Part shown: positions 7,393-48,474 of the stretch, piece after piece
Position numbering within the stretch: position 1 is the stretch's first letter
Layout: each line of letters begins with the position of its first letter
DNA from: Candidatus Peribacteria bacterium
GTDB taxonomy: Bacteria; Patescibacteriota; Gracilibacteria; Peribacterales; Peribacteraceae
Direction: 5' to 3'
DNA length: 50,729 nucleotides
NCBI GenBank assembly: GCA_943355155.1
Contig: CALREJ010000003.1
Span: 1 to 50,729, forward strand
Position numbers and translations under genes: made by a program
The notes under the pieces: model-generated
Databases searched by the model: none
The model's input: the letters and a program-made list of their open reading frames with translations, nothing else
What the model was told of the DNA's origin: nothing

Positions 7393-7466
7393 TGGAGCGG
7401 GTAGCGGGAATCGAACCCGCGTCATCAGGTTGGAAACCTGATGTACTACCATTGTACGATACCCGC
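7393..7466 (-). tRNA. tRNA-Gly (anticodon TCC)
   Basis: Acceptor stem GCGGGTA/TACCCGC, anticodon arm TCAGG-TTTCCAA-CCTGA, T-loop GTTCGATTC, encoded CCA. Confidence 0.97.
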
Positions 7467-13133: not shown

Positions 13134-15323
13134 ATGCCAGACGTCGCAACACCACCGAACCTCCACACCCTCCTCGAAAAGCATTTTGGGTATCAAACAT
13201 TTCGGCCATTGCAGGAGGACATTATGAAGACACTGCTTTCTGGGAAACATTGCCTCGCAGTGATGCCAACGGGGAGTGGGAAATCGCTGTGTTTTCAGTT
13301 GCCTGCTCTTTGTATGGACGGCATCACGCTGGTCATCTCCCCTCTCATTGCGCTCATGAAAGATCAGGTGGACAGCCTCTGTGCAAACGGCATCGCGGCG
13401 GCTTTTTTGAATAGTAGCCAGAGTGCTGCGGAGCAAGCGACAGTCAGAAATGAAATTGTGAACGGCAACGTGCGGCTGCTGTACATCGCGCCGGAGCGAC
13501 TCGCGGTCGAGGGATTTTTATCGTTTCTTTCTGCCATAAAAGTGAAACTAATCGCGATTGATGAAGCGCATTGTATTTCGGAATGGGGACATGAATTCCG
13601 TCCGGACTATCGAAATCTAACTATCTTGCGGGATACGTTTCCGACAGTTCCGGTGATTGCTCTCACCGCAACAGCCACACCAAAAGTCCGCGAAGACATT
13701 CGTGAGCAATTGAGCCTACATGACGCACCCCTCTTCCTCTCGAGTTTCAATCGCCCGAATCTCACGTACCAAGTGTATCCAAAGAAACGCGCGTTCGACC
13801 GTCTGCTCCTCCTCTTTCGCGACAAAAAACGTCTGCCTGCGATTGTGTATTGTTTCTCGAGGAAAGGAACGGAATCGCTCGCGGCGGATCTAAACGCAGA
13901 GGGATTTAAAGCACTCCCCTACCATGCAGGACTCGATGCAGAGGTGCGGAAAAAGACGCAGGATTCTTTTATGCTCGGCGATATCGACATCATCACTGCG
14001 ACAACGGCGTTTGGGATGGGCATTGATAAACCAGATGTCCGCACGGTCGTCCATTTTGATCTGCCGAAAAACATCGAAAGTTACTATCAGGAGACAGGAC
14101 GTGCGGGACGCGACGGCCTCGGCAGCGACTGTGTCCTCTTTTTTTCCTACGGCGATAAAATCAAACAGGAATTTTTCATCGACGAGATACAGGACAAAGC
14201 ACAACAAAAAGTGATGCGACAAAAACTTGCGCAGATGCTGCGGTACGGAGAAATTGAGACGTGTCGGCGGGCATATTTGCTCCGATACTTCGACGAAAAG
14301 GACGTCGCAGAAACCTGTAACGGCTGCGATTGCTGCCTCGACCAAGGAGAGGTATTTGATGCGACGATTGTCACGCAAAAAATATTGTGTGCCGTGATCA
14401 AAACGGGAGAGAGGTTTGGAGCGGCACATGTGTGCGATGTGCTCTGCGGAAAAACGAGTGAGCGAATGAGGAACCTAAAACATGATCAGCTGTCTGTGTT
14501 CGGCGCGGTGACGGATTTTGATATAGGGCAACTCCACGACATCGTCCAATCGCTCCTCCAAAAAAATCTGCTCGCGAAAGCGGATGGGCAATACCCAACA
14601 TTGAGCGTGCCGGAAGCAGGCCGCATGTTCCTGAAAGAAAAGTCGACACTGAAACTTCGAAAGCCACGCGAAAGTTCTGTATTCACCAAGCGCGCGAAGA
14701 ACGATGAGGACATCGCATTCAATGAAGAACTGTTCGAAGAACTGCGCGCACTGCGACGCAAAATCGCAGAGAAGGACGGAGTCGCCGCCTTCGTCGTCTT
14801 CGGTGACAGATCCCTCCGCGAGATGGCAGCGTATTTTCCCAAAAAAGCAGAATCGTTCCGGAAGATGTATGGAGTATCCGACAAAAAAGCTGAGCAGTAC
14901 GGTTCGGAGTTTCTGCCCATCATCCAACGCTTCGCATCCGTGCACGGACTGGAAGAAAAACCGATTCCCCAAAGGCAAGGAAAAAGCATCTTCCATCGCA
15001 TCGGAAACATTCTCAGCACGAACTCAACGTACGAAGGAACACGCCAGCTCGTCCTGAAAAAAATTCCTCTCGCGGAGATGGCGGCACAAAGAAACCTGAA
15101 AGAAGGCACCATCGTCGCACACGTCGAAGCGATTCTGGAGGCAGGTACCGTGCTTGATATCGAATACCTGAAACCAGAGGCTGCGATTTTTAACGAAATA
15201 GCCGCCGTCTTTAAAATCCATGATGGCTCGACCGCCCTCTCCCCCATTTTCGGGCACTTCGAAGGAAAATATTCGTACGATACGATTCGTTTGGTGCGGA
15301 TGTTTTTGAAGAGTTCAGCTTGA
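13134..15323 (+). CDS. recQ: ATP-dependent DNA helicase RecQ
   Basis: MPTGSGKS, DEAH, QETGRAGRDG, Zn-binding Cys cluster, RQC, HRDC and a C-terminal HTH region. Confidence 0.97.
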   Translation: MPDVATPPNLHTLLEKHFGYQTFRPLQEDIMKTLLSGKHCLAVMPTGSGKSLCFQLPALCMDGITLVISPLIALMKDQVDSLCANGIAAAFLNSSQSAAEQATVRNEIVNGNVRLLYIAPERLAVEGFLSFLSAIKVKLIAIDEAHCISEWGHEFRPDYRNLTILRDTFPTVPVIALTATATPKVREDIREQLSLHDAPLFLSSFNRPNLTYQVYPKKRAFDRLLLLFRDKKRLPAIVYCFSRKGTESLAADLNAEGFKALPYHAGLDAEVRKKTQDSFMLGDIDIITATTAFGMGIDKPDVRTVVHFDLPKNIESYYQETGRAGRDGLGSDCVLFFSYGDKIKQEFFIDEIQDKAQQKVMRQKLAQMLRYGEIETCRRAYLLRYFDEKDVAETCNGCDCCLDQGEVFDATIVTQKILCAVIKTGERFGAAHVCDVLCGKTSERMRNLKHDQLSVFGAVTDFDIGQLHDIVQSLLQKNLLAKADGQYPTLSVPEAGRMFLKEKSTLKLRKPRESSVFTKRAKNDEDIAFNEELFEELRALRRKIAEKDGVAAFVVFGDRSLREMAAYFPKKAESFRKMYGVSDKKAEQYGSEFLPIIQRFASVHGLEEKPIPQRQGKSIFHRIGNILSTNSTYEGTRQLVLKKIPLAEMAAQRNLKEGTIVAHVEAILEAGTVLDIEYLKPEAAIFNEIAAVFKIHDGSTALSPIFGHFEGKYSYDTIRLVRMFLKSSA

Positions 15324-34568: not shown

Positions 34569-34645
34569 GGACGATTAGCTCAGTTGGTTAGAGCGTTCGA
34601 TTCACATTCGAAAGGTCCCCAGTTCGAATCTGGGATCGTCCACCA
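34569..34645 (+). tRNA. tRNA-Val (anticodon CAC)
   Basis: Acceptor stem GGACGAT/ATCGTCC, anticodon arm TTCGA-TTCACAT-TCGAA, T-loop GTTCGAATC, encoded CCA. Confidence 0.97.
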
Positions 34646-41915: not shown

Positions 41916-42500
41916 ATGCACATCCACGATCACAAAGAACAACTAAGGCTAAGGATCCGTGAACGTCTCGCGAAAATGAGTCCGCGCATTCGCGCAGCGG
42001 AAAGTCGCAGTATCTGCAGGCGCATTCTGCAGGATCTTCCCGATGAACCATTGGTCGTGTGTGCATACGCCGCAATGCCGTCGGAGGCAGATCTGAAATA
42101 TCTTCTCGATGATCTGCTGACAGATACCTCTTGTTCGATCTTCCTCCCCCGCTTCACACGGGCATTTTTTGAATACAGACACATCGTCACGCTTGATGAT
42201 CTGGAGCCGGGAAAGTTCAATCTTCCCGAACCGCCTGCCACTGCGGATCTACTAAATCTCCAAGATGTCACCCATGCATTCCTACCCGGCCTCGCCTTCG
42301 ATAAACAAGGCCACCGCATCGGCCGCGGCAATGGCGGATTTGACAGGTGGCTGCAGGATCTGCGGAAAGTAAATACCAAAGCCGTCGTCTGGGGCATCGC
42401 TCTCGAATGCCAGCTTGTTGAGAGTGTTCCGTTTGAAGCACATGATCAATTGGTGGATGCGGTGGTGACGCCGAGGGAAATCATCCGAGTGCAAAAGTAG
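41916..42500 (+). CDS. 5-formyltetrahydrofolate cyclo-ligase
   Basis: PGLAFD..G.RIGRG.G.FDR and HDQ.VD.VVT. Confidence 0.95.
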   Translation: MHIHDHKEQLRLRIRERLAKMSPRIRAAESRSICRRILQDLPDEPLVVCAYAAMPSEADLKYLLDDLLTDTSCSIFLPRFTRAFFEYRHIVTLDDLEPGKFNLPEPPATADLLNLQDVTHAFLPGLAFDKQGHRIGRGNGGFDRWLQDLRKVNTKAVVWGIALECQLVESVPFEAHDQLVDAVVTPREIIRVQK

Positions 42501-42553: not shown

Positions 42554-43816
42554 ATGTTTACCTACACAGATTTACTCGCAGCAGATCCCGATATTTATCA
42601 CGCTCTCATGGGCGAAATGAAAAGGCAGTCGGATGGAGTGGAACTGATCGCCTCGGAAAACTATGTGTCACCTGCGGTGATGGAAGCGATGGGCAATGTG
42701 TTCAATAACAAATATTCAGAAGGATTCCCCGGAAAACGCTACTACGGCGGACAGGAATTTACGGACATCATCGAAACGCTTGCCATCGAACGAGCAAAAA
42801 AGTTATTCAATGCAGGCCACGCAAACGTGCAGCCGCACGCAGGAGCACCGGCAAACGTCGCAATGTATTTTGCGCTGATGGAACCTGGCGACACGGTAAT
42901 GGGGATGGATTTGAGCCACGGCGGACACCTCACACACGGTCATCCTGTCACCTACCTCACAAAAATCTTCCGGTTCGTCCGCTACAAAATGAAAGACGTC
43001 GAAACCGGTGAACTCGATTACGATGAAATGAGAAAAGTAGCGCTCGCCGAGAAACCAAAAATCATTCTTGCAGGATTTTCCGCATATCCACGAGAAGTGA
43101 ACTACGCAAAAATGAAAGCAATTGCGGATGAAATCGGTGCGTACACAGTCGCAGATATGGCGCACATCGCAGGACTGATCGCCGGAAAACAACTACGGAA
43201 TCCCTTTGATGATGGGTTCGATGTCATCACCACGACCACGCATAAAACTCTCCGCGGACCGCGTGGCGGCATGATCCTGACGCGTGAAGCAGAGCTCGGG
43301 AAAAAGATGGATAAGTCCGTTTTCCCGGGTTTTCAGGGCGGGCCGATTATGCAGATGATCGCAGCCAAGGCAGTGGCCTTTGGCGAGGCACTGAAGCCGG
43401 AATTTCAGGAGTACGCTGCGCAGATCATCAGAAATAGTAAGCATCTTGCGAAGTTTTTCATGGACAGACATGTGAAGCTCGTCACGAACGGAACAGACAA
43501 TCACCTGATGCTCATTGACTGTATGCAATCCTTTGGCATCCCCGGCGGCGAAGTGGAAACTGTGCTCGACCGCGTCGGTATGACGCTCAATAAGAATATG
43601 ATTCCCGACGATACACGAAAACCCATGGATCCCTCGGGTGTGCGCCTCGGCACTCCTGCAATCACTACGCGTGGTATGAAAGAAAAAGAAATGGACATAC
43701 TGGGAGAGTTTATTCTCCGCGCTATCGAAAAGAGGAGCGACCCCCGTGCATTGGAATCGCTCCACTCTGATGTACAAAATTTTTGCAGAAAGTATCCGGT
43801 TCCGGGAATCAGTTAA
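42554..43816 (+). CDS. glyA: Serine hydroxymethyltransferase
   Basis: LIASEN, YSEGFPGKRYYGG, GGHLTHG and TTTHKTLRGPRGG. Confidence 0.98.
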   Translation: MFTYTDLLAADPDIYHALMGEMKRQSDGVELIASENYVSPAVMEAMGNVFNNKYSEGFPGKRYYGGQEFTDIIETLAIERAKKLFNAGHANVQPHAGAPANVAMYFALMEPGDTVMGMDLSHGGHLTHGHPVTYLTKIFRFVRYKMKDVETGELDYDEMRKVALAEKPKIILAGFSAYPREVNYAKMKAIADEIGAYTVADMAHIAGLIAGKQLRNPFDDGFDVITTTTHKTLRGPRGGMILTREAELGKKMDKSVFPGFQGGPIMQMIAAKAVAFGEALKPEFQEYAAQIIRNSKHLAKFFMDRHVKLVTNGTDNHLMLIDCMQSFGIPGGEVETVLDRVGMTLNKNMIPDDTRKPMDPSGVRLGTPAITTRGMKEKEMDILGEFILRAIEKRSDPRALESLHSDVQNFCRKYPVPGIS

Positions 43817-43818
43817 GA

Positions 43819-44604
43819 TTATTCATCTACTCTGCACACGCTGGGGCTTCCTGTTTGACAGGAGTATCCCGTTTCCACCGCACAATTGTGAGAGCATCCG
43901 TCTCCATCGCGGTTATTTCCATCATCACACGCTTCGGATCCGGCCATCACTTCGTCTCCACAATACGCAGCTATTGTACACACGCTTGGGCTACCGGTGC
44001 AGGTAGAACCGACTTCCACAATACACGATGTTGTACATCCATCGCCATTTGATTCATTTCCATCATCACATTTTTCAGTAGCAGCCTGCACACCATCTCC
44101 ACACTCCGACCAGCACTGAGAAGGTTGTGCGGACGTACACGTAAATCCTATTTCAATCGCACATGCACTGGTACATCCATCACCGGAATGGGCATTGCCA
44201 TCATCACACTGCTCACTTCCAATAATAAGTTTGTCACCACACCCTGCTTTTTTCAGGCTGTCCGTCGTGCCGGTACGTGGCTGCAATGTAAATGTGGGAA
44301 TCGATGAACGACTTCGTGTCTGGACAGACCGAAACCCAAAAGTACTGACAGAGGGAATGGGTGCTCCAGATTTTTGATTCGCAACTCTGCTCCTTCTCCT
44401 CTTCTCTGCTGTTGTCAGTACTTTCTCAGGAGTTTTGAGTGAGGAACTGATTGCTCGTCCGGACGTTCCAATAGTCCGAGGAAGAATGCGCGCAAGAAGA
44501 TCCGGGCTCTCGAAGGATGAAACCTCCTGCAGAAAACCAACGGATAATGCTGCGAACAGCGCGGATAAAACTACCATTCTGGTTGTGTGATGTGTGTTTG
44601 TCAT
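43819..44604 (-). CDS. Surface protein with three Myxococcus-type Cys-rich (DUF4215) repeats
   Basis: N-terminal TM helix and CGD......E.CDDGN...GDGC...C x3. ATG 44604 lies 6 nt after TATAAT. Confidence 0.9.
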   Translation of the reverse strand: MTNTHHTTRMVVLSALFAALSVGFLQEVSSFESPDLLARILPRTIGTSGRAISSSLKTPEKVLTTAEKRRRSRVANQKSGAPIPSVSTFGFRSVQTRSRSSIPTFTLQPRTGTTDSLKKAGCGDKLIIGSEQCDDGNAHSGDGCTSACAIEIGFTCTSAQPSQCWSECGDGVQAATEKCDDGNESNGDGCTTSCIVEVGSTCTGSPSVCTIAAYCGDEVMAGSEACDDGNNRDGDGCSHNCAVETGYSCQTGSPSVCRVDE

Positions 44605-44818
44605 GTGTCCATTATAGCAAATATGCATATTTTTCGCAAATACCAAAAACCATCACATTTTCACATTGGACAAATATCACTAAAATACACATAAGAAAGG
44701 CTATACGAAGCCATTGATGAAAATGTCATTTTTTGCATACATTTTGTATCCAAAAAACAACAAAGAACATTCACCACTCAAGAAAGTTGCGGACAAAATA
44801 CTGATGAGTATGATGACA

Positions 44819-45300
44819 TGATTTGTTCAGGACAGTGTAACAAATCACTGACACAACATCCAAACAAACACTTGTTCTTTATTCACCACCGACTACACAG
44901 AAAGAGTGATGGTCACAATGGACTCAGACACGTTCCTCTCAGCCACACACCTTGCTTCCTGCATATCCCTGAGGAATGGCAACGTGACCTCTCTACATGT
45001 TCATCGCATCTTCACGATGTGACTATCACTCTTTCTGCTCTGCGAGCCACACAATACTATTCGAGGTTTATCATTGTGTGCACTCCCCTTCACTCCCCAG
45101 TGTTTCCCCTGCGTCGCAAGACCTTGTGGCAAACCGTCACGGGGACCTCGTCCGGTCACGAGGAGAAATAAGAGACCAGAGCAAGGCAGAAAGCGAGGCA
45201 CCTCCCCTCATATCAACTCCCCGTCTCAGTCACGCACTTGCATGACCGATAGAACCCGGAGAACATAAACACCAAAAGACTCCTCACGGGGTCTTTTTGT
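44819..45300 (+). ncRNA. Candidate large structured non-coding RNA (~480 nt), family not recognised
   Basis: Upstream TTGCGG-16 bp-TATGAT, many stems including a 20-bp long-range helix, a 3' terminator and no credible ORF. Confidence 0.6.
45274..45300 (+). terminator. Intrinsic terminator
   Basis: AAAAGACTCC-tcac-GGGGTCTTTTTGT. Confidence 0.85.
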
Positions 45301-45327
45301 TATTCACTACAGCATTTCTATAAATAA

Positions 45328-45368
45328 TGTCATCCTGAGGAGCGCCAGAGCGCGTCTCGAAGGACGAA
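45328..45368 (-). repeat. Family-1 palindromic repeat
   Basis: Reverse complement reads TTCGTCCTTCGAGACGCGCTCTGGCGCTCCTCAGGATGACA. Confidence 0.8.
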
Positions 45369-45386
45369 CCATGCTACAATCCCCTC

Positions 45387-45776
45387 ATGCGTAAAATGAA
45401 ACGTAGTCTGGGCTATGCGGTAGAAGGTGTGCATCATGCATTTACCTATGAACAAAACGTGCGCCTCTTCCTCTATGGATACATCGTGGTCGTTGCTGCC
45501 GGGCTGTATTGTGATTTACTGTCATGGGAATGGATCACCCTCTTCATCGCAGGAGGTATCTTTTTTGCGATCGAACTCTGCAACACATCACTGGAACGAC
45601 TCACAGACGTGATCGATGAAAATCGAAAAATTGCAGGTGGCGCCCAGTTTCACGCAGGACTCAAGCAGGCGAAAGATGTCGCAGCCGGCGCATCACTCAT
45701 TTGTCTTCTGATGAACGCACTCGTCATTGTGATTGTGTTTTGGCCGTATGTGGTGTTGATGATTAAAGGGAGGTAA
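45387..45776 (+). CDS. dgkA: Prokaryotic diacylglycerol/undecaprenol kinase family protein
   Basis: YAVEG...EQN, ELCNTSLE..D and AKDVAAGA; three TM helices. Confidence 0.9.
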   Translation: MRKMKRSLGYAVEGVHHAFTYEQNVRLFLYGYIVVVAAGLYCDLLSWEWITLFIAGGIFFAIELCNTSLERLTDVIDENRKIAGGAQFHAGLKQAKDVAAGASLICLLMNALVIVIVFWPYVVLMIKGR

Positions 45777-48474
45777 TTTTCTGCTTCTTCGCCACCGCAT
45801 CAAGCATACCTTTGCTTGGAGGCGGAACGCCGCCTGTCGCAATCAGTTTCTTTTCCAGCTCACCCATCGATGCGATTTCTGCTTCTGAAAGCGTTTCATC
45901 GAGCATCTGACGCTTGCGCAGCGCATTAAATTCATTCAGGTACATTTCTCTGTCACGCCACGCACGATATTCATCGAGCTTCATTCCCTTCGCTTTCGCC
46001 TTTTTACGCTCCTCTTCTTCTTTTTCCTTTGCCTTCTCATTTGTTTTTGTCGCAACTTTTGCTTCGCCAACGGTTGCCGCCCAGCGGAGGATCTTCTCCT
46101 CGACCACTGCACGTTTTTCCGCATAGCGTTCACGGCTCAGGTCTCGAAGGATCTGCACGCGGTCGTCGTCTTGCTTATAATCCGGTGGTGGAAGTGTTGC
46201 GACGGAGAAAGGCTTACTCGGGATGCCATCGATCATCAGGCGCATATAGGCGTGATATTTTGGCAAACTAAGAATGTCCTTTGCCGTCACCATTTCTTCA
46301 AATTGCAGACTCAGGTCTTCCGCATCGTCTGAACCGACTTGGAAGCTGACCATCGAACCGACGTTTCCAAATACCGCATCACGCAGCGCTGTGTCGTTTC
46401 CATTGATGAGTAATTGCCCGACGTATTGATGCGCAACGGTAAGCGCCAAACGGTATTTGCGCGCTTCACTGAGGATCGTCGCGAAGGACTTGGTTGCAAA
46501 GTTTTGGAATTCATCAACGTAGAGGTAGAAATCCTTACGCTCTTTTTCGGGAATATCTGCGCGACTCATTGCATCGATCTGAAACTTCGTCACAAGCATC
46601 GATCCCAAAAATGCGGATGTATCTTCCCCGAGTTTTCCCTTTGATAAATTCACAAGCACGATCTTCCCTGTGTCCATCGCATGACGAATATCTAGAGTAG
46701 ATTTCACCTGTCCGATGATGTTTCTTATGAGTGGGGTCGTGAGCAACTGTCCGATTTTATTCTGAATCGCAGCCACAGCCTCTGTCCGATACTTGTCACT
46801 CCAGCCTGCATATTCCGTTTCCCAGAAGCTTTTCACAACGGGATCGGTGATCTTGGACACAATCTTTTTGCAATAGGCATCGTCACCAAGCATACGAAGG
46901 ATACCAAGCATTGAAGACCCTTCATTTTCGAGCAGTGCGAGCAATGTGTTTCGGAGAATGTGTTCCATGCGCCCCGAAAACGCCTCCGGCCAGAGCTTCG
47001 TAAAAACGCTCATGAGTCCGGAACAGATGAGCGAGCGAGTGTCCGGGTCTTTGGCTTCGAGCATATTAAACGACACCGGAAAGTCGCGGTCTGCAGGATC
47101 GAAGAGAATGACATCATTGCTTCTGTGTTTTGGCACAAACTGGAGGATCGCTTCGATGAGGTCACCGTGCGGGTCGATCACACCGATTCCCTTCCCACTA
47201 TGGATATCACTGAAGATCATGTTTTCGAGCAGCGTAGACTTTCCCATTCCTGTTTTTCCGATCACGTACATGTGACGACGACGATCATCGGGACGGATTC
47301 CGAATGCCATTTTTCTTCCATGAAATACAGACTCACCAAGGATCGTCAGGTTTTCTTCTTTGTCCGAGATATTCGGGATCGGGAGATTCACCGGCGGCTC
47401 CAGTTTTTTCGCCATCACCCAATCCATATTCGGTGTTTTCACGAGAATATTCGGCACATGCCAGAGTGTGGCGATTTCCTCTGCAGAGAGGGCAAAAGGA
47501 GTCACCGTGAATCCCGATGGAAGAGCAGAAGCCGTCTTGATAGCGCAGACATGGAATCCGTTACTCTGTGGCAGCGTAAACTGCCGAAAACTACTCGCAA
47601 TTTCTTGCACTTTCACAAGTGCTTCTTCTTTGTGTTCGATTGGCGTGATCACGCTCACGCGCACATTTGCGAGAAAAAGGAGCCGATTGATCTTGTCCGC
47701 AGCACCCATCATTTTATCTTCCCGATCATGCGTGCGCGCACTGGCATGCAAGATATCATCCGCATGGTCGGATTCCACTTCCTCTCCTGTGAGAAGCGAG
47801 ATTGATGATTTGGGTGTGAGCCCCGAAAAAAGCACGCGCCAGCCACCCATCAACATATCGAATGGGAAGAGATACAATCGTTTCCATCCGCGCGCGAGAT
47901 GTACCTTTGCGTACGCTTTTCCGTACGCAGGCCAGTGTTTGGAAATTCCCTTTTCGAGAAATGGCAAGAATTTGAGCGCGCGCCTGCGATAGCTTTCCCC
48001 CATCGGCTGCAACTCGATCTGCACATGTCCGCGCATTTTCTGCTGTGGATAACGCACAAGTGTCGACGTAATGCCCGCGATCGTATCAACCGACTGTTTT
48101 GTCGACGTATCACTAAACTGCGGATAGCGTTTGATAGGAAACACCTCGGGATCGACGAGTTCCAAGTCCGCATACACGACGATCTCCCCTTCTTTTGGTT
48201 CAAATAAATCCATCGGTGCAATCTCGATCTCTGCATCGGGGAATTGTCCATACATCTGACTCTCAACGAGTGAAGCCACGACGTTTTTGGAGCGCGCAAA
48301 AAGACCAATTTTCCCTTCAGCAAGTCCGATCTCCAGACTCAAATTCCCTTCCCGACGTTCAATAGAATGAAGCGACGACAGCGCCGTTTCCATCATCAGC
48401 GGCCCACGACTCGCACTCACGTCGTCTTGCGTGGGAAGTGATGGCCGAATGCGAAGAAGAATGTTTTGGGACAT
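45763..48474 (-). CDS. VirB4/TrwB/HerA-superfamily ATPase (type common in CPR)
   Basis: DRRRHMYVIGKTGMGKS, IDPHGD, YVDEFQNF, SEARKY and AHQY. Confidence 0.9.
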   Translation of the reverse strand: MSQNILLRIRPSLPTQDDVSASRGPLMMETALSSLHSIERREGNLSLEIGLAEGKIGLFARSKNVVASLVESQMYGQFPDAEIEIAPMDLFEPKEGEIVVYADLELVDPEVFPIKRYPQFSDTSTKQSVDTIAGITSTLVRYPQQKMRGHVQIELQPMGESYRRRALKFLPFLEKGISKHWPAYGKAYAKVHLARGWKRLYLFPFDMLMGGWRVLFSGLTPKSSISLLTGEEVESDHADDILHASARTHDREDKMMGAADKINRLLFLANVRVSVITPIEHKEEALVKVQEIASSFRQFTLPQSNGFHVCAIKTASALPSGFTVTPFALSAEEIATLWHVPNILVKTPNMDWVMAKKLEPPVNLPIPNISDKEENLTILGESVFHGRKMAFGIRPDDRRRHMYVIGKTGMGKSTLLENMIFSDIHSGKGIGVIDPHGDLIEAILQFVPKHRSNDVILFDPADRDFPVSFNMLEAKDPDTRSLICSGLMSVFTKLWPEAFSGRMEHILRNTLLALLENEGSSMLGILRMLGDDAYCKKIVSKITDPVVKSFWETEYAGWSDKYRTEAVAAIQNKIGQLLTTPLIRNIIGQVKSTLDIRHAMDTGKIVLVNLSKGKLGEDTSAFLGSMLVTKFQIDAMSRADIPEKERKDFYLYVDEFQNFATKSFATILSEARKYRLALTVAHQYVGQLLINGNDTALRDAVFGNVGSMVSFQVGSDDAEDLSLQFEEMVTAKDILSLPKYHAYMRLMIDGIPSKPFSVATLPPPDYKQDDDRVQILRDLSRERYAEKRAVVEEKILRWAATVGEAKVATKTNEKAKEKEEEERKKAKAKGMKLDEYRAWRDREMYLNEFNALRKRQMLDETLSEAEIASMGELEKKLIATGGVPPPSKGMLDAVAKKQKITSL

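Follow-up and report, generated by a model that had tools for sequence, protein, structure and literature searches.

A predicted large structured RNA with a pseudoknotted core, usually present in two copies, in Peribacteraceae-type bacteria

The stretch of DNA analysed here (the window) covers 50,729 nucleotides (nt) of contig CALREJ010000003.1, from assembly GCA_943355155.1 of a Candidatus Peribacteria bacterium, a member of the Peribacteraceae in the Candidate Phyla Radiation (CPR). Between a DUF4215 gene and dgkA, the gene of a prokaryotic diacylglycerol kinase, there is a gap of 782 bp (44605-45386) without a convincing open reading frame (ORF). An earlier note on this DNA, made from the letters alone, had drawn attention to this ORF-poor interval of about 780 bp and had placed in it an undescribed structured non-coding RNA of about 480 nt, with a promoter and a terminator of its own. 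The interval is as described, and the tests that the note had named, as far as they were run, all agree with this core proposal. The segment 44787-45300, read on the plus strand, is very probably a real and hitherto undescribed structured RNA gene of about 480 nt; the transcript predicted for the window copy has 479 nt.

Many of the elements from which the proposal had been built are present in the sequence: the two promoter boxes separated by a 16-nt spacer, a 9-bp hairpin at the predicted start, the stems CACACAAT/ATTGTGTG, TCCCC/GGGGA and CCTCGT/ACGAGG, and a 20-bp helix with a single G-U pair, which appears in both the minimum free energy (MFE) and the centroid fold (coordinates in Table 1). 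The terminator that had been claimed was also found by a scan, as a hairpin followed by a T run. When the region is folded as a single sequence, the plus strand gives z = -3.44, with 0 of 100 shuffles as stable, and the minus strand z = -2.51; such statistics taken alone are weak evidence, and it is the comparative data that are decisive. Four copies of CTCCCC do occur (45083, 45093, 45202 and 45217), as the note had counted, but they do not all lie in unpaired linkers, where it had put them, since several are strands of conserved helices. In the whole window the hexamer is found 35 times, compared with 14.9 +/- 3.2 expected.

Homologous loci were searched for at several levels of similarity. 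BLAST of 44600-45400 against 40 related genomes returned matches in 21 of the 24 genomes of the same family (f1) and in 0 of the 16 genomes from 16 other families; the matches centre on 45085-45210, with 75-87% identity, and usually lie at two places per genome. The invariant 24-mer GGTYACGAGGAGAAACAAGARACC gave 79 hits in a species-representative genome collection (185,579 species by its stated size), all of them titled Candidatus Peribacteria, Peregrinibacteria, Peribacteraceae or Patescibacteria group. A covariance model of the 3' core (R1, 45028-45209) scored 104-182 bits in 15 of 15 other f1 genomes, and exactly two copies were found with it in 12 of the 16 f1 genomes that include the window's own. 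Among 135 genomes of other families the same model gave one weak match (26.4 bits), in G124, which belongs to family f8. The G124 locus keeps the promoter layout, the block CUCUCCCCGCUUUGCAAUGUCG, hairpin P2 and the invariant AGCAAGGCA; its stem 2 reads GGUA...UUACC, a compensatory form, and its loop 3 carries an inserted hairpin. A second G124 copy, at 80% identity, is present as well, and a BLAST search started from the f8 copy returned only this one and two short matches. Finally, the pattern GGTNACG-N(10-40)-ACCNNAGCAAGGCA was present in 19 of the 64 remaining f1 genomes that were scanned, in 6 of 43 from f8 and in 0 of 293 from other families, and its reversed form, used as a control, had no hits. 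The zeros elsewhere do not show absence, because the pattern is strict and many true f1 copies fail it. As far as these sequence comparisons reach, the RNA occurs only in Peribacteraceae-type CPR bacteria and in a single additional family of their class.

The structure was derived from an alignment (A1) of 79 distinct core sequences. Its RNAalifold consensus contained 31 pairs, 23 of them with compensatory changes; two spurious pairs were then swapped for the crossing stem CUUCG(U)/(A)CGAGG, and 35 pairs were scored. In the final structure, 95.5% of 2762 cells are standard pairs, and 23 of the 35 pairs show two-sided changes, which is the strong covariation among homologs that the earlier note had proposed to look for. 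Column shuffles reached none of five structure measures (0 of 500), and sliding the structure by 1-3 columns left only 38-46% pairing. The shuffle control overstates the significance, because the aligned sequences are related; the slid control and the independent pair types are unaffected by kinship.

Compensatory changes are found in 9 of 9 pairs of P2, with up to four Watson-Crick types per pair, in 5 of 6 pairs of P4 and in 3 of 5 pairs of P3, where 100% of cells are paired. In Pc, the helix closing the junction, they affect 4 of 5 pairs (alignment columns 21-22/188-189 and 25-27/183-185), with 99% of cells paired. The CTCTG/CAGAG helix (45038-42/45177-81), which had been proposed for this closing position, is not the conserved register, since the two bases after GACC vary freely and CUCUG does not; covariation supports 45037-38/45186-87 together with 45041-43/45181-83. 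Neither was the stem GTCGCAA/TTGTGGC of the same proposal confirmed, and it overlaps the covariation-supported P4. The core contains in addition an H-type pseudoknot, absent from the earlier note, in which GGTC pairs with GACC across the CCTCG/CGAGG hairpin. Its stem 2 shows 15 two-sided changes (C-G to U-A in 14 of the 79 sequences, G-C to A-U in 1). In stem 1, the changes within f1 are one-sided, from U-G to C-G, and the f8 form UCUG/CAGG is compensatory if the by-eye alignment is right; the stem is probably real.

The long helix P1 is kept with at least 13 pairs in 76 of the 79 homologs, and several pair types occur at its positions 9-14 (at position 10, UA 26, GC 19, CG 12 and AU 5 of 76); here the diversity of pair types is the evidence and not the percentages, as the script that finds the partner strand favours pairing. 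The distance between the strand ends of P1 ranges among homologs from about 35 to 215 nt, with about 35-60 nt in many genera, and the insert has about 100 nt in the window copy. Conversely, about 60 nt of the core are nearly invariant, across genera whose peripheral helices have fully diverged. The homologs show a conserved fold, which in its predicted form is made of the 5' hairpin, P1 and a junction closed by GCUCUGC/GCAAGGC that holds P2, the P3-P4-P5 arm and the H-type pseudoknot (Table 1).

Table 1. Predicted parts of the RNA, flanking genes and tRNA genes, with positions in the window
Feature	Position	Strand	Basis
Promoter: -35-like TTGCGG 44787-92, 16-nt spacer, -10 TATGAT 44809-14; predicted start ~44820-44821	44787-44814	+	sequence and conservation in homologs
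5'-terminal hairpin, 9 bp (44819-27/44839-47), 11-nt loop	44819-44847	+	fold; homologs keep a hairpin starting with GATTT[CG], stem sequences differ
CA-rich single-stranded linker with conserved motifs ACAAACA..GTTCTTT and TATTCACCACCG (44880-91)	44848-44897	+	homolog comparison
Long helix P1, 20 bp, one G-U (44898-44917/45018-45037); lineage-variable apical insert 44918-45017	44898-45037	+	fold and pair-type diversity
Junction-closing helix Pc, 5' strand GCUCUGC (partner 45181-45187)	45037-45043	+	covariation
Hairpin P2: CACACAAU 45048-55 / AUUGUGUG 45073-80	45048-45080	+	covariation
Arm P3-P4-P5: P3 UCCCC 45094-98/GGGGA 45141-45; P4 45102-07/45128-34; variable apical hairpin	45094-45145	+	covariation
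H-type pseudoknot, most conserved segment	45146-45177	+	stem 1 CCUCG(U) 45146-51/(A)CGAGG 45158-63; stem 2 GGUC 45154-57/GACC 45174-77
Pseudoknot loop 3, A-rich, AGAAAUAAGA	45164-45173	+	10 nt
Pc, 3' strand GCAAGGC, within invariant AGCAAGGCA	45181-45187	+	covariation; invariant in f8 homologs also
Hairpin P7: GAGG/CCUC, C-rich loop CACCUCC	45195-45209	+	by eye, uncounted: short stem kept, sequences differ
3' domain P8: CUCC 45217-20/GGAG 45258-61, encloses GUCUCAGUCA..hairpin..UGACCGAUAGA	45217-45261	+	by eye
CA-rich tail and Rho-independent terminator (hairpin 45274-45297, T run to ~45300)	45262-45300	+	scan and homologs
DUF4215 gene	43819-44604	-	ORF list and Pfam
dgkA (prokaryotic diacylglycerol kinase)	45387-45776	+	ORF list and Pfam
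tRNA gene	7396-7466	-	Rfam gathering level
tRNA gene	34569-34642	+	Rfam gathering level

Several peripheral features also recur. In 69 of 79 homologs the long helix is preceded, at a distance of 2-20 nt or with an inserted hairpin between, by a TTCACAYCACCG-like motif, corresponding to the TATTCACCACCG site with at most 3 mismatches, and the internal loop of the P3-P4-P5 arm (AGU vs CCGUCAC in the window copy) is nearly invariant. By eye, the P7 loop reads mostly CUCCUC or CACCUC among homologs, with the variants CUCAUC and CCCCUU, and the P8 pattern CCUYC..GGCUCArYG-hairpin-CrUYGAUAGCC..GRAGG is seen in most homologs and missing in four in-genus orthologs. A kissing contact between the P7 loop (CUCCUC) and an invariant GAGGAG was considered and rejected, as the sole natural variant of GAGGAG (in L024) and the loop variants do not, by eye, compensate each other.

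The strand of the RNA is indicated by its wobble pairs. U148-G164 (columns 148/164) is found in 62 of 79 sequences and a G-U at columns 36/72 in 34 of 79; since these would be A-C mismatches on the opposite strand, and since the terminators are on the plus strand, the plus strand is the transcribed one. Such a terminator occurs at a fixed relative place in 75 of 78 evaluable homologs, compared with 4 of 81 in a minus-strand control window; its T run lies at a median of +152 nt from the anchor, and the three misses are imperfect stems with TTTTTG. At the other end, a pattern search found a -10-like hexamer (TAnnAT/TAnnCT), with the GATTT[CG] of the 5' hairpin 4-8 nt downstream of it, in 60 of 79 homologs, whose upstream sequences mostly also have a TTGC -35-like element. 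A consensus promoter scan did not list the promoter of the window copy, because its -35 hexamer matches in 3 of 6 positions only; the support for this promoter comes from conservation in homologs. The predicted length of the RNA has a median of 491 nt and a range of 411-686 nt in the 54 sequences with both ends predicted. The homologs together show a stand-alone RNA gene, whose promoter and intrinsic terminator are both conserved.

ORFs of 64-117 codons occur in the region on both strands, and these, together with the two copies per genome, could suggest either a small protein, encoded by ORF 44818-45171 or in another frame, or the remnant of a repeat or mobile element. However, every frame is interrupted within the core in at least one homolog, with minimum open lengths of 6-18 codons, and where the window copy has the ATG at 44818, other homologs have GTG, ACG, CTG or AAG. 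Codon-level conservation of ORF 44818-45171 had been named in the earlier note as the finding that would speak for a protein; none was detected in that or any other frame. A protein-coding function is excluded, because neither a frame nor a start codon is conserved; indeed, the substitutions track base pairing and not codon position. As for a repeat or a mobile-element remnant, the loci have conserved chromosomal contexts among housekeeping genes, with only two copies in the window's genome, and this whole alternative is extremely improbable.

Transcript data come from one freshwater metatranscriptome run (contigs; share of the stretch 0.09), in which a 216-nt contig matches 45046-45260 with 9 differences and 2 gaps, at about 95% identity; the lack of coverage of 44787-45045 in these contig data is no evidence of absence. 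The match shows that the 3' domain of a close relative is present in an RNA library.

The locus was compared with all 4227 families of Rfam 15, presumably including the models for OLE, GOLLD, ROOL, raiA and HEARO. At gathering thresholds nothing matched at the RNA locus, and the only matches in the window were the two tRNAs. With E up to 10, the segment 44500-45450 gave five chance-level matches of 11.9-18.6 bits, far below gathering, and nothing credible was found on five homologous loci at E up to 1. The scan against known families that the earlier note had suggested has therefore returned nothing credible at either level. No description of the RNA was found in literature on Peribacteria, Peregrinibacteria, Patescibacteria or CPR non-coding RNA; a term search of the main text of the Peribacteria genome paper, supplements apart, finds no mention of non-coding or intergenic RNA elements (PMC4736985). 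By the measure of these searches, the family is previously undescribed and matches no known RNA family.

It could still be argued that the RNA is a highly diverged housekeeping RNA that the Rfam models miss, as the models for signal recognition particle (SRP) RNA match nothing and that for 6S RNA has only sub-threshold matches, which made one universal RNA seem unaccounted for. The earlier note had seen no signature of transfer-messenger RNA (tmRNA), RNase P RNA or SRP RNA; in keeping with this, the locus has no match to any of them, and RNase P RNA (C28:12435-12873, 118.6 bits) and tmRNA (C32:4675-5099, 95.1 bits) are found elsewhere in the genome. An identity as SRP RNA, which is marked by a helix 8 with GNRA tetraloop and by conserved loops, was raised since RF00169 and RF01854 match nothing; it was rejected, the Ffh and FtsY domains being undetected as well. 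The small SRP RNA model (RF00169) matches in 0 of 31 genomes of the class and the large one (RF01854) nowhere in the window's genome; the Ffh M domain PF02978 exceeds its cut-off in 0 of the 31 genomes, and the SRP54 GTPase domain PF00448 is matched in 6 of 31, in each case marginally and over no more than the first 35-107 positions of the profile. The RNA is not a disguised SRP RNA, because this lineage has no detectable SRP protein to bind it. The whole SRP/FtsY targeting system is apparently missing in the window's genome and in 30 relatives of its class, a loss known in outline: many CPR bacteria are stated to lack SRP subunits (PMC8080830).

The idea of a 6S-like domain, also contained in the earlier note, did not hold up, as the bubble-containing insert of P1 is the least conserved part of the RNA and a separate 6S-like locus exists. 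The 6S model RF00013 has no match in 44500-45450 at E up to 10, and the fold is a junction with a pseudoknot, not the 6S rod of about 180-200 nt with its large central bubble between a closing and a terminal stem; 6S RNA was therefore rejected as an identity. The only match of this model in the genome is at C5:26790-26941 (+), with 28.6 bits, below the curated 46.4. Of 25 relatives, 14 have a single similar candidate of about 150-160 nt (around 155), away from the locus of the RNA; these score 28-44 bits, all below the cut-off, and the one on C5 is probably the diverged 6S RNA of the lineage. A diverged housekeeping RNA is thus largely refuted, by the missing SRP proteins, the separate 6S-like locus, the fold and the two copies, and is very improbable. 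As a side observation, the RNA has, 2-3 kb upstream, a 5-formyltetrahydrofolate cyclo-ligase gene (41916-42500, +) and glyA (42554-43816, +, by likeness to the SHMT ORF of G016). Some bacteria have their 6S RNA linked to the cyclo-ligase gene; the proximity is here probably coincidental, the RNA not being 6S.

The place of the RNA upstream of dgkA, on the same strand and with its terminator 87 nt before the dgkA start, could also point to a cis-regulatory leader or riboswitch that uses the terminator at 45274-45300 to control dgkA, and many aptamers are built as H-type pseudoknots with an A-rich loop. However, the dgkA of the window has its own TACAAT box, 6 nt before the ATG and after a repeat element. 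In one genus (L023) dgkA lies upstream of the RNA, and for the L011 ortholog the ORF list has nothing like dgkA in the interval from the RNA to the ATPase. One paralog type has glyA, dgkA and a TrwB/HerA-like ATPase in its vicinity, efp lies tail to tail with the other, and the f8 neighbours (Lgt, an AI-2E transporter and a methyltransferase) are unrelated. Moreover, the terminator is constitutive in form, besides being kept in nearly all homologs, and about 480 nt far exceeds known leaders. The RNA is not cis-acting, because its neighbours differ by paralog, genus and family and dgkA has a box of its own; control of dgkA by a leader is largely refuted, and highly improbable. No conserved neighbour that might serve as a functional clue is common to both paralogs or to f8.

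Two further observations concern this neighbourhood. The terminator of the RNA is separated from the dgkA TACAAT box by an imperfect-palindrome repeat of about 40-50 nt (GTCATCCTGAGGAGCGCC...CGAAGGACGAAC, 45317-45366), which recurs at about 10 other places of the genome with 85-100% identity (for example C16:19009-19054, C24:17445-17484 and C13:4475-4524), and a short piece of which matches an RNA-library contig. It looks like a repetitive extragenic palindromic (REP) element or a miniature inverted-repeat transposable element (MITE), and it possibly supplies promoter-upstream sequence. On the far side of dgkA, a 903-aa protein (45763-48474, -) has weak matches to TrwB/TraG-D coupling proteins and to HerA-type ATPases and is syntenic with the RNA in several genera; given its housekeeping neighbours, it probably does not belong to a conjugative element.

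The window's own genome has only two copies of the RNA, the second being on C15 (core 14597-14780, minus strand). A tree of 28 core sequences, which includes only loci with known genome handles and was midpoint-rooted and read without support values, places the two copies of the genomes of genus g1, of G012 and of G017 in separate clades, and the copies of G016, G018 and G022 cluster together. The split clades indicate an old duplication with both copies kept, and the clustering indicates conversion or re-duplication. In five genomes (G015, G016, G075, G114 and G146) the two copies are convergent and 27-29 kb apart. A mobile element or island bounded by them was rejected, since in G016, where they lie at C2:244634-244818 (+) and 272557-272738 (-), the interval is made of housekeeping genes, with gyrA, ruvA, hrcA, pfkB, PGI and an M23 peptidase. 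These genomes have only about 1.2 Mb and little dispensable DNA; that the RNA is nevertheless retained twice makes it likely that it matters to the cell.

A further alternative, which the earlier note had itself raised, is a base-pairing or sponge RNA, whose C-rich loop, C-rich stretches and CA-rich linkers would titrate G-rich RNAs or an RNA-binding protein. The four CTCCCC in about 500 nt, set against the 35 in 50.7 kb, are in line with this idea, as are a P7 loop that is C-rich in most homologs (by eye) and CA-rich linkers conserved at both ends. However, several C-rich stretches are helix strands (P3, P7 and P8), the sequence of the P7 loop varies, and the strongest conservation is in the structured core and not in repeated linear motifs. 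In particular, a CrcZ/CrcY-type sponge of Hfq was rejected, as a search of this genome (88.6% complete) for Hfq (PF17209) gave no match, and conservation does not peak in repeated A-rich motifs. Few obvious G-rich targets would be available either, in view of leaderless genes without Shine-Dalgarno enrichment, and a sponge appears unlikely.

Translation signals in this genome bear on the same question. Before the first ATG of 813 long ORFs, the most enriched hexamers are of the -10 type (TATACT, GCTATA, TACACT, TGCTAC, TATAAT and TACAAT), and no enrichment of Shine-Dalgarno-like motifs was found upstream of these ORFs; most mRNAs are probably leaderless. The likeness of CTCCCC to mRNA leaders, to which the earlier note had pointed, reflects instead the promoter-proximal sequence of leaderless genes. 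Examples are the TACAAT-CCCCTC-ATG of dgkA (45366-45389) and the DUF4215 gene (44604-44639, minus strand). Mimicry of Shine-Dalgarno or anti-Shine-Dalgarno sequences was rejected for the RNA, since the 16S 3' end reads ..AUCUCCUUA and promoter boxes, not ribosome-binding sites, precede the ATG. The 16S rRNA 3' end itself (C8, minus strand, ...CUGCGGAUGGAACAUCUCCUUA) is without CCUCC, the canonical core of this end, which fits the missing Shine-Dalgarno signals.

As for function, we propose that the RNA would act in trans and not on a neighbouring gene. A partner, most likely a protein, would bind specifically to the surface made by its invariant pseudoknot and junction, and the RNA may be the scaffold or regulatory subunit of a ribonucleoprotein (RNP), with two paralogs that would represent differently regulated or specialised versions, as in known protein-binding RNA pairs. 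A protein-binding role of this kind is favoured because paralog pairs are typical of such regulators. The trans-acting, protein-binding mechanism is put forward tentatively, by analogy with those systems; the complete explanation, in which the RNA gene and the mechanism are taken together, is quite possibly correct, though short of probable.

Several points weigh against this explanation. The protein-binding step is an argument from analogy, drawn from near-invariant unpaired nucleotides around the pseudoknot and from the paralog pairs. No candidate partner emerged from the neighbourhoods of the f1 and f8 loci, as the two families share no RNA-linked gene. Since the two copies cluster together in G016, G018 and G022, gene conversion or dosage, and not specialisation, may be what maintains them. 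Stem 1 of the pseudoknot is partly supported, as two-sided changes are missing within f1. Transcript support amounts to the one 216-nt contig; neither strand nor ends nor abundance can be read from contigs, and DNA may be their source. Finally, large RNAs with this much invariant sequence are often catalytic.

The last point leads to a ribozyme, in which the invariant pseudoknot and junction would be a catalytic core, for self-cleavage, processing or another reaction, and not a protein site. The approximately 60 near-invariant nt around the pseudoknot and the junction, despite a diverged periphery, and the same blocks in f8 would suit such a core, and the transcript contig, which covers only the 3' domain and has one end near the boundary between P1 and the junction, would fit processing, although contig ends prove nothing. 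On the other hand, the RNA matches no known ribozyme family of Rfam 15, no conserved substrate or associated gene is apparent, and two paralogs per genome are unusual for housekeeping ribozymes. A catalytic core is accordingly regarded as an unlikely alternative to the RNP proposed above.

The non-coding RNA content of CPR bacteria is almost unexplored. We know of very few large bacterial RNAs that join this much invariant sequence with a complex covarying fold; RNase P RNA, tmRNA, OLE, ROOL and GOLLD are such RNAs, and each of them opened a line of research. It is conceivable, though rather unlikely, that the RNA is the first representative of a new class: a large housekeeping RNA, catalytic or RNP-forming, that is peculiar to Peribacteria-like CPR bacteria and kept in two copies over family-level and deeper divergence. 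If true, its core would run a reaction or assemble a machine without counterpart in cultivated bacteria, and the RNA might compensate for a function lost in reduced genomes. With promoter, ends, secondary structure and conserved core defined, the RNA is open to synthesis, probing, binding and catalysis tests, and imaging.

Among known systems, the pseudoknot resembles those of the SAM-II and preQ1-II riboswitches and of the telomerase RNA core, with which it shares the H-type topology and an A-rich loop 3, here of 10 nt; such an arrangement allows loop 3 to occupy the groove of stem 1. Differently from those, it is embedded in a trans-encoded RNA of 480 nt and not in a 5' untranslated region (UTR), no Rfam match is found, and the gene context implies no ligand. 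The raiA motif RNA (ModT) is alike in being stand-alone, with its own promoter and terminator, pseudoknotted and wide within phyla, and in having a proposed regulatory role without a biochemical mechanism; however, it has about 200 nt, it belongs to Bacillota and Actinomycetota, its helices and conserved nucleotides are unlike those described here, and its Rfam model gives no match.

OLE RNA is likewise large, intricate and lineage-restricted, with many near-invariant nt, and it was found by comparison before its function was known and is thought to act in an RNP. It has about 600 nt, occurs in Firmicutes and is linked to genes of partner proteins, and no Rfam match to it is seen at the locus; the Peribacteraceae RNA, in contrast, has about 410-690 nt, is found in CPR bacteria, is present in two copies and has no conserved neighbour gene. 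As for paired regulators, the 6S-1/6S-2, CrcZ/CrcY and GlmY/GlmZ small RNAs differ from the Peribacteraceae RNA, which is larger, has a pseudoknotted junction as its conserved part, does not match 6S and occurs in a genome where no Hfq was found; they are alike in that each pair consists of two stand-alone homologs with separate promoters, a shared core and diverged peripheries.

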